Positions 52,836 to 62,896 of a stretch of DNA of 64,000 nucleotides are shown one piece after another. This DNA is from Candidatus Poribacteria bacterium (GTDB taxonomy: Bacteria; Poribacteria; WGA-4E; WGA-3G): assembly GCA_965197475.1 (NCBI GenBank), contig CBDANF010000003.1, positions 3,744,001 to 3,808,000 on the forward strand. The letters run 5' to 3'. The position numbers and the translations under genes were made by a program. The notes under the pieces are model-generated. The model worked only from the letters and a program-made list of their open reading frames with translations, had not been told where the DNA came from and did not search any database. Every line of letters begins with the position of its first letter. Positions within the stretch are counted from its first letter, which is position 1.

Positions 52836-54209
52836 TTACTTTTGAGTTTGAAATAGATGTTCTAAAATTTGCAACCGTAATTCTGTCTCTAATTCTTTCA
52901 TCTCGGGTAACCCCGCGAGATTATTTGTTTCATCGGGATCGTTTTGCACATTAAATAAGAGATACGGTTTACCATCTGTATTTAATGCGATTTTCCATTC
53001 CTGATTTAACAACATAATTTCACCTGATATTTCAGAAATAGCAAATTCACGGTGCGTTGATTCTGTATCAGCAAGAACAGGATTCAAGGATTTTCCGAAT
53101 TGACGGTGCTTTAACTCGCCACCTGCCAATTCAACAAGTGTAGGTCCAATATCAATCCATTCAACAGGACTTTCACACACAAGATCTTCTGCAGCATTTT
53201 TCACTGTTTCGGGAGTTCGGACAAGTAGTGGGACGCGGACAGCACCGTTGAGGAAGTTGCTTTTGTAAATCAACCCATAATCGCCATTCATTTCTCCGTG
53301 ATCGGAGCAGTGGATGATGACGGTATTTTCGAGTTCACCGCGCTCCTGAATTGCTTCAAGAATTTCGCCAATCTGCGCATCAATGAGCGTGACATTACCG
53401 GCATAGTCTGCGCGGAGTTTTCCGATTTCACCTTCTTCAAATTTGGGGTTCATCCGATTCATCATATTATCCAAATTGCCACGAGGGCGAACTCCGGCTG
53501 CTTGTCGGGGAATTGGTGGTGGCATATCATTCGGGTCATACATGCTGGCGTAGGGTTCAGGTGTATCCCAAGGTTCATGGGGTCCTCCGAAACTAACCCA
53601 ACAGCACCACGGTTCTTGGTGGTCATAGTTTTGAAGATACTGCTTTGCTTGCTGTCCAACATAGACATCCGCGTAGTTTTCAAGTCCGAGTGTTGAGGGA
53701 CGGACAAGGTAAGGTTTTGTGCTGAATCGTTCACGATAATCGGCACGGTATGCATCCCACAACCCTTTCTCTTCCCACATTGCTGTCATGTGTGACTTGA
53801 GACGCGTACTCGCCCGTGGCCCTCCGATCTCGTCCACATCGTCTAAGCCATAGGCGTTCAACAAATCTTCACACTCACGCATGTCGTTGTTGCCTTGAGG
53901 GTGAAGGTGTGTTTTACCGAACAGGCTTGTTTGATAACCAGCGTCTCGAACTGCCTGCATCCATGTCGGCGTTTCTGCCGACATGGTATGTCTCATATTA
54001 TTCCAAACACCGGTATTATGCGGATATAAACCTGTTGCTAAACTGAGCCGTGTAGGGACACAAACCGGAGAGGTAGTGACGCAGTTGGTGAATCGAACAC
54101 CTTCACCTGCAATTCGATCTAAATTTGGGGTTTGAACCCAGTCTCCACTGCAGCCCATTGCATCCCATCGCTGCTGATCTGTCATGAGAAGAAGAATGTT
54201 TGGTTTCAT
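52836..54209 (-). CDS. Sulfatase (choline-sulfatase-like family)
   Basis: PNILLLMTDQQRWD, CVPTR, GKTH, PHEP, SDHG. Confidence 0.93.
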   Translation of the reverse strand: MKPNILLLMTDQQRWDAMGCSGDWVQTPNLDRIAGEGVRFTNCVTTSPVCVPTRLSLATGLYPHNTGVWNNMRHTMSAETPTWMQAVRDAGYQTSLFGKTHLHPQGNNDMRECEDLLNAYGLDDVDEIGGPRASTRLKSHMTAMWEEKGLWDAYRADYRERFSTKPYLVRPSTLGLENYADVYVGQQAKQYLQNYDHQEPWCCWVSFGGPHEPWDTPEPYASMYDPNDMPPPIPRQAAGVRPRGNLDNMMNRMNPKFEEGEIGKLRADYAGNVTLIDAQIGEILEAIQERGELENTVIIHCSDHGEMNGDYGLIYKSNFLNGAVRVPLLVRTPETVKNAAEDLVCESPVEWIDIGPTLVELAGGELKHRQFGKSLNPVLADTESTHREFAISEISGEIMLLNQEWKIALNTDGKPYLLFNVQNDPDETNNLAGLPEMKELETELRLQILEHLFQTQK

Positions 54210-56907: not shown

Positions 56908-57801
56908 TCAATGCGAGTTTAATTTTGACACATTCAAATTTGCGTAAGTCCTTGTCCGTTCAACCCGATTAATTCCAGCATCAACAAATGCTTTGGACAA
57001 CGTCTCATAAGATAACGTAACAGCCGCAAGCGGATCGTAGTTTTCACGTGCCTGTACCATAAAACTGACTTCAGCAGTGATAAACCCATCATATCCATGT
57101 GCCTGCATCGCCTTAAGATAACCGACATAATCAAAAGTGCCCTCACCGGGGATAAGGAATTCAAAGTCTGGTGCGATACCGCGCTGATCTTTGACGTGTG
57201 TATGTGCAGAGACTGCAGCTAAGGCAGACACAGTGTCTTCCGTGGGCATTCCAACGATGTCAAAATGGCTAATGTCGAAGTTAACTTTGAAATAAGGGGA
57301 ATTAACGATTTCAAGAAGTTCAAGCACTTTATCGGGAGTATCAATGGTTGCGCCGATGTGCGGTTCCATCGCAATCGTAACACCTTTGGATGCCCCATAA
57401 TCAACCAACTCACCAACCCTCTCAGCGAGGAAGTCTTTTTTTGTATCCCACTCTTCCGGTTTTCCACGAGAGGTAGTATTCACTACTGGTAGTTCCTCCC
57501 CCTGTGCAAGTTCCACAGCCAAATCAACACCGCCTTTAAGCCGCCACATATTTCTTGCATGAGACTCTGGATCGATATCCATCAGATTAGAATGCGCAGC
57601 GATTGCTGGTAATGCCAAGTTATGCTGTTTCAGCATTGACGCAATGCGTTTTCGTTCTACCGCATCAAGTGTGCTAAGCTCGGTCGTAAAGGGCGGAATG
57701 ATGGTCAGTTCAATCCCATCGAATCCAAGGTTAGCAATGTGGGATATTGCGGTATTTATAGGGACAGTAGGCATTCCCCATGTGCTATATCCGAGTTTCA
57801 T
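56908..57801 (-). CDS. Sugar phosphate isomerase/epimerase (xylose-isomerase-like TIM barrel)
   Basis: GFDGIEL, MEPH, NFDISHF, HTHVKD, PGEG.FD, GY.G.ITAE. Confidence 0.9.
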   Translation of the reverse strand: MKLGYSTWGMPTVPINTAISHIANLGFDGIELTIIPPFTTELSTLDAVERKRIASMLKQHNLALPAIAAHSNLMDIDPESHARNMWRLKGGVDLAVELAQGEELPVVNTTSRGKPEEWDTKKDFLAERVGELVDYGASKGVTIAMEPHIGATIDTPDKVLELLEIVNSPYFKVNFDISHFDIVGMPTEDTVSALAAVSAHTHVKDQRGIAPDFEFLIPGEGTFDYVGYLKAMQAHGYDGFITAEVSFMVQARENYDPLAAVTLSYETLSKAFVDAGINRVERTRTYANLNVSKLNSH

Positions 57802-57848: not shown

Positions 57849-58544
57849 TCATCCGAAAAACGCAACAATTGAATCGAGCCAATCGTTTATTAGAAAATCA
57901 ACACGTTGAATTAGTAGAGCCACACGCCCCATAACGGTGTTTCCAAATGCTGAACCGAACCCTATCATGAGAAAGGCAATTCCGACCTTTGATATCCATT
58001 TGACGGGACCTCTGTGTTCTACCGAAAAGAAAAAATATGTGAGTGTGCAAATTACGCCAATTACCATAAGGGCTGCCCCGATAACGAGAGCAGTAAATTC
58101 TCCAGGAGGCATTGCTTCTACACTGACCCCTGTAATTTGATTATGAATTTCTGAAAACGGTTCAACTGTTCCACGTGTTTGCTCAAAAATATGGGCTCGA
58201 AGAACATTTGGAATAGCAAGCCCACAACCCACACCGATGAGGATCGCACTCGGAAACCGAATCAACCAAGTATGTCGTGGTGATAACCCAGCGAAAAATA
58301 ACAACCCAACCCCAATGGGAATTAGCTTAATTAAACCTAATAGCGATTCCCCTGTTACTGCTGCCCAAAATGGTTGCCATGCAAACGGTATAAATCCTTG
58401 ATGATAAGAAAGGACGATACCGTATCCGACTGACATACCTACGAAGAGATATTCTGCAAACCGATAAAACGGATTGTCTCGGTAAAGAAAACTATATATG
58501 CATAATGTTAAAAATGCGGCAATCCAGATGCCCAAAAGTTCCAT
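57849..58544 (-). CDS. Uncharacterised integral membrane protein (4th gene of the DUF6754-like module)
   Basis: GAGGAG RBS, ATG 58544; LTLCIYSFLYRDNPFYRFAEYLFVG, L.YFFFS.EH.G, M.GFG.AFG.TVMGR; about 6 TM. Confidence 0.8.
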   Translation of the reverse strand: MELLGIWIAAFLTLCIYSFLYRDNPFYRFAEYLFVGMSVGYGIVLSYHQGFIPFAWQPFWAAVTGESLLGLIKLIPIGVGLLFFAGLSPRHTWLIRFPSAILIGVGCGLAIPNVLRAHIFEQTRGTVEPFSEIHNQITGVSVEAMPPGEFTALVIGAALMVIGVICTLTYFFFSVEHRGPVKWISKVGIAFLMIGFGSAFGNTVMGRVALLIQRVDFLINDWLDSIVAFFG

Positions 58545-58548
58545 TAAT

Positions 58549-59364
58549 TTACTCCTCTTGCTTTCTCTGAACAAAGAAGGCGATGTTGCCAATAATCACC
58601 AATAAAACGATCAACAGATGTACAAACGATTCAACATTTATCCACAACATCCCTTTTGCGGGGGCGTTAATTAAATGTTCATATTCGGCAGCACCAGCAA
58701 TACCTGATATCAGACCTATTAATTGTCCGGTTTGCAAATAAGGATACATTTGCGAGATAATGACACCTGTGACACCCGCGGCGATTTGCTGATTGAATTG
58801 CACATTCGCAAAGGTAATCCATGACTCTGTTAAACTTCCAGAAGATAGATCAATAACTAATTCAATCTGATCGTAGTTCGTAATGTTTTCCATCATCGGT
58901 AATTCGGCAATAGGTGTTCGGTAATAATCATTTTCATAGATACTTGCGATATCAGTTCCCATGCCGAGAATCACTAATTCGATACCAGGACGAAATCCGA
59001 GGAAAACATAATCTTCACCGTTGACAGCATCTTTTTCTTTTGCGACTTCCTCCATCAGATCACTTCCCATAGTTGTTCCCACGGCATAAAGCGTAAGTCC
59101 GATAACTTTAACATCTTTTTCAAAACACTGTTTCAGTATTGCTTTAGCCATAGGATTCAGTTCCGCTAAAGAGGAGGGACCGTAGTCAAAAACAAGCATA
59201 ATCGTTGATCCTGCGGGAAGTTGATCAATAAAGTCGTAGAGTTTCTGAGTCGGTTCGGAAATTGATACGGGTAAACTGACAGATAACAACATGGGGATGA
59301 TGACTGCCAACGCAACCAGAATAAAAACAATTCGTCGATCCATATTTACCAATTTAGTTAGCAT
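58549..59364 (-). CDS. Uncharacterised protein with TM-soluble alpha/beta domain-TM layout
   Basis: DRRIVF TM, FDYGPSS.AEL.P, GEDYV.LGF.PG, YPYLQTGQL.GL..G..GAAEYE, C-terminal TM. Confidence 0.8.
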   Translation of the reverse strand: MLTKLVNMDRRIVFILVALAVIIPMLLSVSLPVSISEPTQKLYDFIDQLPAGSTIMLVFDYGPSSLAELNPMAKAILKQCFEKDVKVIGLTLYAVGTTMGSDLMEEVAKEKDAVNGEDYVFLGFRPGIELVILGMGTDIASIYENDYYRTPIAELPMMENITNYDQIELVIDLSSGSLTESWITFANVQFNQQIAAGVTGVIISQMYPYLQTGQLIGLISGIAGAAEYEHLINAPAKGMLWINVESFVHLLIVLLVIIGNIAFFVQRKQEE

Positions 59365-59367
59365 GCG

Positions 59368-60030
59368 TTAATCTCCTCCACCAAGATATGAACGTTCAAT
59401 ACCTAAGATAATGCGGATGGACTGTGAAATAACTCCTAAACTCACACCGAGGATAATACCACGTCTGGCAGAGAGATTCGGATTGTCTAAAATCCACTGT
59501 TTCATGCCTGAGGAACCATTAGCTAATGTTTCTGCCCAAGGTGTCCACGATATTAAAGTGTTCCAAATTAAATCACCAACAGGCACATTTCCCAACATAA
59601 CAATTACTGCAGTAATTAGGAGTAGCGTTGCCTCAGTGTTTCGTGCGCGGAATGCACGGTACGCTGCCGATGCGATAAAGAAAGCGAGCAGCGAAAACAT
59701 AGTCGCATCCATCGGCAGTTGCACATTGTTAAATAACCATTCAAAGATGGGGTGTTGGGGACCAAAGGGGATTCCCACCGCCACCATAATTGCGATTCCC
59801 GCAAAAACAAGAAAACTGTACTGCCAATGTTCAGTACGGCGACTAATACGGGTGACATGAGTTTGGAGAAGTGTTATTGTGCTGAACACTAAGGCGAAAG
59901 GTGTTATAATCCGTGCCCAACTCATTATTTCTTCATAAACTCCTTGAGAAAATGAATGTGGACTGAACTGTGTAAAAATTATAACTACCCCGAAAAGAAA
60001 GCAGAGAATTAAGGGAATTTGTCTCTTCAT
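59368..60030 (-). CDS. Uncharacterised integral membrane protein
   Basis: ATMFSLLAFFIASAAYRAFRAR, ARRGIILG..LG, R.ILG.ERSYLG; 5-6 TM. Confidence 0.8.
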   Translation of the reverse strand: MKRQIPLILCFLFGVVIIFTQFSPHSFSQGVYEEIMSWARIITPFALVFSTITLLQTHVTRISRRTEHWQYSFLVFAGIAIMVAVGIPFGPQHPIFEWLFNNVQLPMDATMFSLLAFFIASAAYRAFRARNTEATLLLITAVIVMLGNVPVGDLIWNTLISWTPWAETLANGSSGMKQWILDNPNLSARRGIILGVSLGVISQSIRIILGIERSYLGGGD

Positions 60031-60038
60031 TATACCTC

Positions 60039-61187
60039 CTAATCCAACCGTTGTAAGAGCGTTGTTATCCAGTTAACACCGAATAGTTCAAGAACCACGC
60101 CAAGAACAATGGTTGCAAAAATGAGTATTTTTCCCCAATCTTGTCCTCTGAGGCTTCCGAGTAGCATCGGTTCATTGGAGAGGTAGGCACTTGCGGCGTA
60201 CAATTCTTCACCAATCAAGGTATAATCACATGCTGTGATTAAGAAGGGGAGTTGGTGTTCAGAATCTGTTCCAGCAATCTGAATCGCGCCGATGGAATTA
60301 CCGGTTTCTGCAAGGATAAGTGATTCTGCGTAGAATGTACCTTGTAAAAATATGGCAGCAGGTTTTTCACGTAGCATCATCCCGTCTACACCAGCAGCAT
60401 AAGCGAATTGGCTATCGGTGAGAAAGAAGATATTCTCCTCGCTATAGGCATCGGGACGACCTTCATCAAGATATGAGGCTTTTACCATTTCACGAACTAC
60501 GTTCAGGACAATCGGATCATTACAGGGTACGCGTAGGGTTGTTTCATAATCTGCGGTTCGTCGTGCGACCTGTCCGAGAATTGTCATACTCGCGATAGTG
60601 GCAGGTCCACTGACACCGCCTAACCCTAACACGTATAAAATGGATCGTCCCATCTCGGTTGCTCTGCCGATTGCCTCATCTACTGCTTCAAGTCCAGGAA
60701 TACGGCGAACGAATACCTCTTTGCTATTTCGGGAAAGGTATATACTTCCAAGAATCGCTGCTGAAAAAATTAGCATTGCAATAAAAAGTTGGATTTTGCC
60801 GGGGTGAAACCATTGGTCTGTCGCTTTGGCAGGAGCGGATTTTTCTGAATCCACTGTCACTTCGGTGTCGGTAACAGCACGGACAATATATTCGTAAGTC
60901 TCACCTTGTTGTATGTCCTTGTCTTTGTATCTTGTTTCGCCTGCTTTCAATATTTCAGCAATCATCTCAAATGTTCCATCGGGTGTACTACGTAGTATTT
61001 GATAGCCTGTGATACCACTATCTTTTTGAGCTTTATCCCATGTAATGGTGATGCTGGTGGTATCGTTTGGGGTATCCTTTGCAGTTACGTTTGATGGAGG
61101 CGCAGGCTCTTGGCTAAACGCGTAGGTGCCGCATAAAAATAAAACCGAGCAAACGACTACCCATAAAATTGTTTTATTGTATGTCAT
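60039..61187 (-). CDS. Fibronectin type III + DUF6754-like membrane protein
   Basis: Signal peptide, FN3 (PSNVTA..ITITW..GYQILR..YEYIVRAV), TM, RRIPGLEAVDEAIGRATEMGR, FYAESLILAETG, IGEELYAASAYL, C-terminal TM. Confidence 0.82.
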   Translation of the reverse strand: MTYNKTILWVVVCSVLFLCGTYAFSQEPAPPSNVTAKDTPNDTTSITITWDKAQKDSGITGYQILRSTPDGTFEMIAEILKAGETRYKDKDIQQGETYEYIVRAVTDTEVTVDSEKSAPAKATDQWFHPGKIQLFIAMLIFSAAILGSIYLSRNSKEVFVRRIPGLEAVDEAIGRATEMGRSILYVLGLGGVSGPATIASMTILGQVARRTADYETTLRVPCNDPIVLNVVREMVKASYLDEGRPDAYSEENIFFLTDSQFAYAAGVDGMMLREKPAAIFLQGTFYAESLILAETGNSIGAIQIAGTDSEHQLPFLITACDYTLIGEELYAASAYLSNEPMLLGSLRGQDWGKILIFATIVLGVVLELFGVNWITTLLQRLD

Positions 61188-61218: not shown

Positions 61219-62307
61219 CTAATAACATTGTGAAATTGCTTCTATAATCTGTGTGTCTGTCACATCGTCTCGGATAACGACTTCTCCAATACATGTCGGT
61301 AATATGAGGCGCAGTTTACCACCGAGTGTTTTTTTATCTAAATACATGGCATCGCATATCGCTACGGGAGAAAGATCAGATGGAAAAGTCAGCGGCAATT
61401 TTGCGCGATTTAAAAGAGTGTGTTGACGTTCAAAGTCGGTTTCAGAGAACATTCCCAAATTGACTGCTAATCGTGCTGCGCAATTTATGCCGATAGAAAC
61501 AGCTTCTCCATGTCTATATTTTTTGTAGTGTGTTAATGCCTCAAGTGCATGACCGAAGGTGTGTCCATAGTTAAGCACCATTCGCAAACCGCTCTCTTTT
61601 TCATCTTTTGCGACTATATCTGCTTTGTTCGCACATGCACAAGCGATCATCTCAATTAACGTTGCTACATCTAAATTTAATATCGCGTCAAGGTATTCTT
61701 CTACCATTTCAAACAAAGACTCATCGCGGATGACACCCATCTTGATCACTTCAATGAGTCCTGCACGGATATCCCGTTGCGGTAAGGTTTCAAGCGTATT
61801 GACATCAATCAGCACTAATTTTGGTTGGTGGAACACACCGATAAGATTTTTGCCTTTGGGGTGATTAATTGCTGTTTTACCGCCGACGCTTGCGTCAACT
61901 TGTGCCTGCAAGGTGGTTGGGATTTGCACGTAAGCGATACCTCGCATGTATACTGCTGCCGCAAACCCACCCAAATCTCCCACCACACCGCCACCGAGAG
62001 CAATGAGCGTTGAACTCCTATCAAGTTGGTTATCAATTAAGCTATCCAGTATTTGGGATAATTGCTCTAACGATTTACTTCCTTCACCGACAGGAACATC
62101 AAAGGTAGCAATGTCAAACCCCGCATCTTTTAGATTTTCCGAGACAAGGGGAGCATAACGATGATTAACGAAAGTATCTGTAACAATTAGCACCTTTGTA
62201 GATTTAGCATAAGACTTCAGAAATTTCCCAATCCGGTTGAGAATCCCCGCCCCGACGAATAGCGGATAACTGTTCTCATTAAGTTCAACGTGTAAGGTTT
62301 TTATCAT
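61219..62307 (-). CDS. aroB: 3-dehydroquinate synthase
   Basis: GGGVVGDL, PTTL..QVDASVGGKT, LNYGHTFGHALE, HGEAV; likely start ATG 62307. Confidence 0.96.
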   Translation of the reverse strand: MIKTLHVELNENSYPLFVGAGILNRIGKFLKSYAKSTKVLIVTDTFVNHRYAPLVSENLKDAGFDIATFDVPVGEGSKSLEQLSQILDSLIDNQLDRSSTLIALGGGVVGDLGGFAAAVYMRGIAYVQIPTTLQAQVDASVGGKTAINHPKGKNLIGVFHQPKLVLIDVNTLETLPQRDIRAGLIEVIKMGVIRDESLFEMVEEYLDAILNLDVATLIEMIACACANKADIVAKDEKESGLRMVLNYGHTFGHALEALTHYKKYRHGEAVSIGINCAARLAVNLGMFSETDFERQHTLLNRAKLPLTFPSDLSPVAICDAMYLDKKTLGGKLRLILPTCIGEVVIRDDVTDTQIIEAISQCY

Positions 62308-62896
62308 TTTGTTTTCTCGGGTGTTTTTGAGGGGCTGCGTCCGTATAGTAGATTTTTTTAATGTGCGCGATAATTTCACTGAACGATCTTCCGGTTGTTT
62401 CCACCGTATAATCCGCTTGTGCATAATGAGGTGTACGTTCCACTAACATATTTCGAATTGTTTCCATCGCATCGGGGGTTTGGAGCAGGGGACGGTGTGT
62501 TTGATGACCAACGCGCCGATAGATTTCCTCAGGCGTTGCTGTTAAGCAGAAAACAACACCGTTTTCTTTAAGTTTCGCGACGTTTGCCTCTTTCAAAACG
62601 ACACCACCTCCAGTCGAAATAACATGATTGTGTAGTTCTGAAACTTTGTGAACAGCCTCACTCTCAAGTTGACGAAAAACAACTTCACCGTCTTGCGCAA
62701 AAATATCACTGATGCGTCTCCGATTATCTTTTTCAATAACACTGTCAGTATCAATGAATCGCATCCGCAATTGCGAGGAAAGCCTTTTACCGACAGAGGT
62801 TTTTCCTGTCCCCATATAACCGACAAGAACGATATTAGGGTTTCTTTTAAGCGGTCGATTCACCTGTTTTCGCGCCTTTCTACATACTTTTTGCAA
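62285..62896 (-). CDS. aroK: Shikimate kinase
   Basis: GYMGTGKT, D.D, FR..E, STGGG, RPLL; start possibly GTG 62863. Confidence 0.94.
   Translation of the reverse strand: MQKVCRKARKQVNRPLKRNPNIVLVGYMGTGKTSVGKRLSSQLRMRFIDTDSVIEKDNRRRISDIFAQDGEVVFRQLESEAVHKVSELHNHVISTGGGVVLKEANVAKLKENGVVFCLTATPEEIYRRVGHQTHRPLLQTPDAMETIRNMLVERTPHYAQADYTVETTGRSFSEIIAHIKKIYYTDAAPQKHPRKQNDKNLTR

Follow-up and report, generated by a model that had tools for sequence, protein, structure and literature searches.

What function is served by four closely packed genes, two of them for polytopic membrane proteins and two for alpha/beta domains bracketed by transmembrane (TM) helices, that no solved structure, named family or paper explains? 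The question is raised by the genome of a Candidatus Poribacteria bacterium (assembly GCA_965197475.1), where the genes, here called A, B, C and D, lie in this order on the minus strand at positions 57849-61187 of a 64,000-nucleotide stretch of contig CBDANF010000003.1 (positions 3,744,001 to 3,808,000), hereafter the window. The four-gene module is carried by hundreds of bacterial species, most of them uncultured, whose genomes usually encode an actin-fold ATPase as well. An earlier note on the same DNA had regarded the four proteins as a heterotetrameric complex, possibly a new secondary transporter or ion-coupled membrane enzyme. We have found that the four genes form one conserved unit and that this unit is associated with an actin-fold ATPase and a soluble partner protein. 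We tentatively favor a reading in which the module forms the membrane portion of a machine that uses ATP for envelope work or transport, rather than a secondary transporter.

A conserved four-gene unit

Gene A (60039-61187, 382 amino acids; open reading frame (ORF) list, Pfam and structural model) is followed by gene B (59368-60030, 220 amino acids), gene C (58549-59364, 271 amino acids) and gene D (57849-58544, 231 amino acids), all on the minus strand. Read from the sequence, the gaps measure 8 nucleotides between A and B, 3 between B and C and 4 between C and D, and gene A starts 31 nucleotides after the stop codon of aroB. Each of the four starts is preceded by a Shine-Dalgarno-like site of the AGGAGG, GGAGG or GAGGAG type, so that the tight run with good ribosome-binding sites described in the earlier note is confirmed. 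Gene D appears in the ORF list as 57849-58592 with a TTG start; the ATG at 58544 is the likelier start, because it has GAGGAG in front of it and lies 4 nucleotides after the stop codon of gene C.

Two Pfam families are found in gene A: DUF6754 (PF20539; residues 123-377, model positions 2-256 of 257) at 394.2 bits, where the cut-off is 27 (E = 2.7e-118), and fn3 (PF00041; residues 30-108) at 36.7 bits, where it is 25. Both had been named in the earlier note, and Pfam bears them out. Genes B, C and D have no Pfam family above cut-off and no NCBIfam match. The sole sub-threshold Pfam match is that of gene B to 7TMR-DISM_7TM (18.1 bits versus a cut-off of 29), C and D having none. Neither Pfam nor NCBIfam places an ATPase or transporter family in A-D, and the ABC ATPase and ABC membrane-domain families gave no match at E <= 0.01. 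Profile searches of solved-structure sequences with A-D returned nothing better than E = 0.22, the value of the sole row for gene D, a 69-amino-acid TrwL protein. By Pfam and by these profile searches neither B nor D matches a known secondary-transporter superfamily. The absence of an ATPase or recognizable transporter motif was already part of the earlier note and holds in all of these searches, which also match the unit to no characterized transporter family.

It is evident that the four genes travel together. We examined 20 loci spread over the phylum Poribacteria and 80 loci from other species, in which all ORFs were searched with profiles built from the window proteins. The order A-B-C-D was found in 18 of the 20 phylum loci; one of the other two holds a solo A gene with room downstream, and the other is on a contig too short to judge. 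The other-species loci contain 100 hits to A, 86 of which are testable in that at least 2300 nucleotides follow them. Genes B, C and D follow in order in 81 of these 86 copies within a strict window, and in 84 after the addition of loci L089, L104 and L107, where the stop-to-stop ORF of B starts more than 400 nucleotides before the end of the ORF of A. Two real exceptions are left, a solo A gene in L074 (on the same contig as L033) and a partial A-like ORF in L062. The recurrent gene order is far beyond chance, and the test of synteny across bacteria that had been proposed earlier thus came out in favor of the unit, the order being held in about a dozen other phyla.

The solo DUF6754 gene (L033 2942-4138, which is L074 9575-10771) has about 2.9 kb of downstream sequence containing no homolog of B, C or D; its genome, which branches deeply in the phylum, carries a complete module as well. 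Two related Poribacteria genomes have an additional partial A-like ORF beside the module, on the other strand (L048 9917-10594 and L062 8070-8894).

Complete modules may also occur in tandem, with one module in 52 loci, two in 7 and three in 5. Among the 24 modules of 11 multi-module loci, a module from a foreign genome is closer than the tandem sister in 19 to 21 cases, depending on the subunit, and two subunits of one module share the same nearest foreign module in 12 to 17. The tandem copies are therefore old, whole modules were duplicated as units, and their subunits stayed together. These results firmly show that the four genes are one conserved unit. The grouping of the four genes in the earlier note stands to this extent, while a physical complex of the four proteins is suggested by synteny. 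Complex prediction with A (residues 120-382), B, C and D given as alignments scored 0.65, 0.66 and 0.65; the scores were 0.00 and 0.00 when A was replaced and 0.74 when C was replaced by an unrelated protein, so that they weigh neither way on binding.

The family of gene A is consistently present in the sampled Poribacteria and widespread outside the phylum. DUF6754 was found in all 101 sampled Poribacteria genomes, as a single copy in 94 of them, and in none of 14 control genomes; the genome studied here has one such gene. The DUF6754 part of A shares 84-100% identity with its best 120 relatives, of which the named ones are Candidatus Poribacteria, and 48-64% identity with family representatives from other clusters. 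Among representatives at 50% identity there are 2196 DUF6754 clusters at E <= 0.001 and 802 at E <= 1e-30, and a survey with a single genome for each species turned up at least 616 stretches that encode a relative. The best 80 loci come from Poribacteria, Stahlbacteria, Zixibacteria, WOR-3, Edwardsbacteria, Eisenbacteria, Fermentibacteria, Aegiribacteria, Ignavibacteria, Coatesbacteria, Latescibacterota, Nitrospira/Nitrospirota, Brocadiaceae/Planctomycetota, Gemmatimonas, Armatimonadota, Methylomirabilis, CSSED10-310 and one metagenome-assembled genome labeled Bacillota. The family is catalogued in Pfam and uncharacterized. Gene A is a full-length member, and its A-B-C-D order is that of the cassette in other phyla; the cassette studied here differs in being single-copy, in its detection in every sampled genome of the phylum and in its separation from the ATPase pair described below.

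An actin-fold ATPase and its partner

We clustered the three genes on either side of the module in 100 loci. Outside the Poribacteria, three proteins recur upstream on the same strand, of about 375, 610 and 130 amino acids. The ~610-amino-acid protein matches PF13941 over all 450 positions at an E of about 1e-130, and Hydantoinase_A matches it too. PF13941 ('MutL') is the family of GlmL, the accessory protein of glutamate mutase, and comprises actin-fold ATPases. Across phyla the protein keeps the phosphate and adenosine motifs of the ASKHA fold (DCGSTTTKA, SGGxDGG, DIGGATTD and GSGGxLSH). Its ~375-amino-acid partner is soluble and shows weak matches to the barrel-sandwich families Biotin_lipoyl and RnfC_N, and the ~130-amino-acid protein has no family. 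Profile searches of solved-structure sequences gave a best E of 0.32 for the partner and nothing at E <= 0.01 for the ATPase, and literature searches on DUF6754/PF20539 and on PF13941 found no paper in the library covered.

The neighbors were recounted with tblastn, which sidesteps antisense shadow ORFs, in the 61 testable loci that have enough upstream DNA. The ATPase and its partner lie directly upstream of the module and on the same strand in 21 of these 61 loci, and the small protein does so in 19. In 5 further loci the ATPase or partner is found elsewhere in the locus. An apparent neighbor family of 620-810 amino acids on the opposite strand was rejected, as it consists of antisense shadow ORFs over the ATPase gene in GC-rich loci.

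We further investigated co-occurrence in a sample of 101 genomes from the phylum of the Nitrospira sp. genome that carries locus L120. Fifteen of them have DUF6754, and the same fifteen have the partner; PF13941 matches in these genomes too and, in addition, in a fragment of 66 positions at a contig end. The ATPase and DUF6754 matches are on one contig and at most 3.6 kb apart in all 15 genomes. One Ignavibacteria genome holds five DUF6754 genes and one PF13941 gene. The genome studied here also has both cytoplasmic proteins, with one copy of the ATPase gene (C3:2263168-2264975; L134 8162-9975) and one copy of the partner gene (C3:2135448-2136557). The partner, of 374 amino acids, shares 60% identity with its counterpart in a deep member of the phylum, and the small protein has a weak match with a stop codon inside it. 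Of 31 Poribacteria relatives, 30 gave a PF13941 match. It is thus firmly shown that the module is associated with an actin-fold ATPase and its partner.

In the genome studied here, which is 92.7% complete, no glutamate mutase E subunit (PF06368) was found, and the name 'MutL' therefore does not describe the role of the ATPase here. The ATPase resembles GlmL/MutL in matching the full length of the family and in keeping the ASKHA motifs. It differs in its length of about 610 amino acids, which includes an extra C-terminal part, and in being paired with a barrel-sandwich-like protein and a membrane module; its neighbors in other phyla are these proteins.

Protein architecture and local setting

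Hydropathy gives gene A an N-terminal signal-like stretch and two further TM stretches. The first comprises residues 1-26 (61110-61187), with residues 5-26 hydrophobic and a maximum Kyte-Doolittle value of 2.12. The fibronectin type III (FN3) domain (residues 30-108, 60864-61100), predicted to lie outside the cytoplasmic membrane, is placed by hydropathy and Pfam between this stretch and the first TM helix of the DUF6754 region (residues 123-377, 60057-60821), in which two TM helices enclose a six-stranded alpha/beta domain. Gene C has TM stretches at about residues 12-32 and 243-266 on either side of a Rossmann-like alpha/beta domain. Genes B and D are polytopic, with about 6 TM helices and 6-7 TM stretches, respectively. 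The division into two polytopic proteins and two with an alpha/beta domain between TM helices, as first noticed, is thus supported by hydropathy and by models. AlphaFold2 models of A residues 120-382 (alignment of 118 homologs) and of C (91 homologs) reach a predicted local distance difference test score of 95.5 and 96.5. Both models have the same order of elements, namely a long TM helix, a helix, six strand-helix units forming one alpha/beta domain, and a second long TM helix.

The bias of charged residues was used to orient the proteins. In A, the 15 residues after the first TM helix carry a net charge of +3.65 over 118 rows, and the DUF6754 domain is therefore probably cytoplasmic, in agreement with the signal-like N-terminus and the exported FN3 domain. 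In C, the tails are positive (+1.4 and +1.7) and the flanks of the domain negative (-1.3 and -1.1) among 91 homologs, so that its domain probably faces the periplasm. The N-terminus and alternate loops of B are positive in 87 homologs, which places the N-terminus inside, whereas in D loops 3-4 and 5-6 are positive (82 homologs) and the N-terminus is probably outside. A and C thus probably hold their Rossmann-like domains on opposite faces of the membrane.

The two soluble domains had been described as a pseudo-symmetric pair with loosely parallel ends. The strings concerned, IAGT..LPFL..IGEELYAASAY in A and AAGVT..YPYL..GIAGAAEY in C, do correspond in position, both lying in the last two strand-helix units, and the columns that hold them are conserved in the two families. 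The shared order of elements also agrees with this description, whereas the probable placement on opposite faces and the sequence comparisons do not: A against C gave a best BLASTP E of 0.36 and an hhalign probability of 0.4%, confined to the last TM helix. Paralogy of A with C and of B with D was not supported, as neither BLASTP nor hhalign found anything. The equivalence of the motifs is compatible with a very old duplication and inversion, which no sequence test supports.

Comparison with solved structures did not single out a relative. Foldseek gave no row at E <= 0.001 for A and one row for C (E = 6e-4, TM-score 0.25), which we judged unconvincing. A fold search independent of Foldseek gave flat lists, with Z of 8.7-10.5 for A and 8.0-9.9 for C, that include phosphoglycerate kinase, glycosyltransferase GT-B halves, Sir2, SDR, RCK/KTN and transhydrogenase domain III. 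By eye, 13 of 50 entries are shared between the two lists, and 1kjn_B is near the top in both. Transhydrogenase PntB domain III and RCK/KTN are likewise Rossmann-like domains attached to membrane proteins. Their rows are 4o9u_B (Z 9.3, root-mean-square deviation 3.6, 141 residues aligned) and 4j16_C (Z 9.2) for A, 4j16_C (Z 8.3, root-mean-square deviation 3.8, 145 aligned) for C, and 1id1_B (Z 8.8) for both. They are, however, tied with dozens of unrelated Rossmann folds and have no sequence match to A or C. The idea that the domains resemble PntB domain III in particular was dropped, as it is one among many tied rows.

These folds could mean that the module is a membrane-bound biosynthetic or redox enzyme, with a nucleotide cofactor or a nucleotide-activated precursor as ligand of the two Rossmann-like domains, for instance in the synthesis and export of a surface polymer. 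Both domains do match nucleotide-binding Rossmann-like folds at Z of 8-10.5, and gene A is rich in invariant acidic and polar residues: sixteen columns are invariant over 118 diverse sequences, and such residues among them include E59, E169, E175, Q184, Q193, D202 and E209. The stretches of A that hold its invariant residues are GRATEMG, AESLxLAETG, AIQIAGT and CDYTLIGEE. On the other hand, no family stands out in the flat lists, the first strand is not followed by a conserved glycine-rich motif of the classical dinucleotide type, a single glycine being invariant there, and the clustered neighbors include no recurrent glycosyltransferase or polymerase gene. We consider such an enzyme quite improbable.

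The exported part of A is variable. In 150 listed representatives DUF6754 is at or near the C-terminus, and the N-terminal part varies from about 0 to more than 1000 residues. Among the 47 representatives of at least 600 amino acids, PQQ_2 (BamB-like) propellers were found in 9, fn3 in 2 and HEAT repeats in 1; most have no recognized domain, and no solute-binding-protein family was found among the 47. The exported domains are protein- or polymer-binding modules. One homolog of B (L090 10800-12572) is 591 amino acids long owing to an inserted FG-GAP beta-propeller, and other variants of B or D, in L038, L040 and L041, have inserts of about 100 amino acids or more that match no family.

Upstream of the module in the window lie aroK and aroB (TIGR01357, 386.6 bits). 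The position behind aroKB is real here, as the earlier note had it, but the link is local to one Poribacteria family: the genes adjoin the module in 3 of the 20 phylum loci, all of the close family, and in 2 further loci they are arranged differently, at a distance of about 3 kb. A functional tie between the module and aroK/aroB was dropped for this reason, and we regard them as local neighbors. The listed ORF of aroB overlaps aroK by 140 nucleotides (62285-62424); a later start at Met39 is likely, since the family match begins at residue 54. A xylose-isomerase-like TIM-barrel gene (56908-57801) follows gene D on the same strand after 47 nucleotides, and a 457-amino-acid ORF a few kb downstream (52836-54209, same strand) is arylsulfatase-like by eye. 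In a simple scan, the best promoter-like site was before aroK (62971-62943, minus strand) and a terminator-like site was after the TIM-barrel gene, with hit counts at chance level. In two sponge metatranscriptome runs of one study, segments of A (60099-60257) and C (59179-59344) are matched without a difference by short contigs. A claim of expression or co-transcription from these contigs was dropped, as they are too little evidence and RNA libraries can carry DNA. In other genomes, 5 loci (e.g., L080 13121-15919 and L130 13247-16114) have a TonB-dependent-receptor-like outer-membrane protein (CarboxypepD_reg, Plug and barrel) downstream of the module, and a Memo-like protein follows the module in 5 Nitrospira/Nitrospirota loci.

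Candidate roles of the module

How could such a module work together with an actin-fold ATPase? In the reading that we tentatively favor, A-D would be the subunits of one inner-membrane complex. Gene A would contribute a variable exported domain, here FN3, and a very strongly conserved Rossmann-like domain in the cytoplasm, held by a TM helix on each side; the membrane core would consist of the polytopic B and D; and C, built like A, would have its Rossmann-like domain on the periplasmic side. As cytoplasmic engine, the PF13941 ATPase would dock together with its partner, which has a barrel-sandwich-like N-terminus. ATP turnover at the cytoplasmic face, probably acting on the domain of A, would be relayed by B and D to both C and the exported part of A, where it would serve to move or handle a substrate at or across the inner membrane.

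Two groups of known machines have a comparable layout. ECF and ABC importers share one energizing module among several substrate-specific membrane units, and the presence of one ATPase gene beside up to five diverged modules, each A with its own exported domain, may reflect a similar arrangement. They differ in that the module has no ABC ATPase, ECF T or S component or solute-binding-protein family, and in that the ATPase here has an actin fold. FtsEX, MacB and LolCDE are mechanotransmission ABC systems, and RodZ with MreB and PilN with PilM are bitopic partners of actin-fold proteins. What all of these share with the proposed machine is an ATPase in the cytoplasm, a core in the membrane and exported domains through which work or position could be relayed. 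The likeness is one of layout; compared by Pfam matches, these systems have no sequence or fold relation to the module.

Several observations weigh against an ATP-driven machine. The ATPase and its partner are not directly upstream in 39 of the 61 testable loci, 12 of which are among the closest, Poribacteria-like relatives. The co-occurrence in the Nitrospira-centered sample comes from related genomes and may reflect one event of gain or loss. In the genome studied here the ATPase and partner genes are unlinked to the module, lying about 1.5 and 1.7 Mb away on the same contig. In this assembly the ATPase gene is moreover split between two frames, the break being in a G run inside the conserved SGGxDGG motif. 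This break is either an assembly error or strain-specific, because 29 relatives have a single open frame of about 600-645 amino acids. The assembly of A-D and the docking of the ATPase are predicted from genes and synteny, and B and D are known from hydropathy and charge bias, from which a channel or transporter fold does not emerge. Finally, the exported domains (FN3, BamB-like and FG-GAP propellers, HEAT) are protein-binding and not solute-binding proteins, and fit envelope work at least as well as uptake.

The loci without the pair upstream, and the lack of an ATPase gene near the module in this genome, are also what would be expected if A-D worked on their own, without an ATPase, as a secondary transporter or ion-coupled membrane enzyme, and the pair were no more than a frequent neighbor. 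The topology is in keeping with this as well. B has its N-terminus inside and D probably outside, and the domain of A is probably inside and that of C outside, which suggests an inverted two-half layout as seen in many secondary transporters. However, the module and both cytoplasmic genes are carried by the same 15 of 101 genomes in the Nitrospira-centered sample, the pair precedes the module on the same strand in loci across several phyla, the ATPase is kept in this genome and in all but one of the 31 relatives, and no transporter family matches. The secondary transporter suggested in the earlier note is therefore unlikely, and we place it a little above the membrane enzyme.

Another possibility is that the module is an anchoring or scaffolding complex that would tie an actin-fold cytoplasmic protein to the envelope and move no substrate, in analogy with RodZ-MreC-MreD and MreB, or PilN-PilO and PilM. 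Gene A, with its cytoplasmic domain, single TM link and exported protein-binding domain, would suit this role, as would the range of exported domains, from FN3 here to the BamB-like propellers and HEAT repeats of long relatives and the FG-GAP propeller of one B variant. The actin fold of the associated protein and the presence of gene A in every sampled genome of the phylum, as for a housekeeping envelope function, point in the same direction. Against this, PF13941 is close to hydantoinase-type enzymes and not to known filament formers, judging from the Pfam description and from the Hydantoinase_A matches, and up to five modules per genome with one ATPase fit interchangeable working units better. 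A scaffold of this kind is unlikely in our view. We therefore rank the ATP-driven machine first, followed by the scaffold, the stand-alone secondary transporter and the cofactor-using membrane enzyme.

A more specific form of the ATP-driven machine is conceivable, although we hold it with distinctly less confidence than the general reading. The module could be a two-faced, inverted translocator of four subunits, in which one half is formed by A and B, with the domain of A and the N-terminus of B inside, and the other by C and D, with the domain of C and the N-terminus of D outside, energized by an actin-fold ATPase rather than an ABC, P-type or rotary ATPase. If so, it would represent a new class of primary transporter or trans-envelope machine, common to Poribacteria, Nitrospira, anammox-related Planctomycetota, Methylomirabilis and many candidate phyla, in which several substrate-specific modules plug into one ATPase engine.

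The six proteins (A-D, the ATPase and its partner) have no characterized or solved relative, yet they are among the most strongly conserved gene sets in several large and mostly uncultured bacterial groups, some of which, such as nitrite oxidizers and sponge symbionts, are environmentally important. The Poribacteria are a useful case, as the module is found in every sampled genome, mostly in a single copy, and is unlinked from its presumed engine. If the ATP-driven reading is true, an actin-fold ATPase that drives a membrane machine would couple ATP to envelope work in a new way, and knowledge of the substrate would close a gap in what is understood of the physiology of all the lineages that carry the machine.

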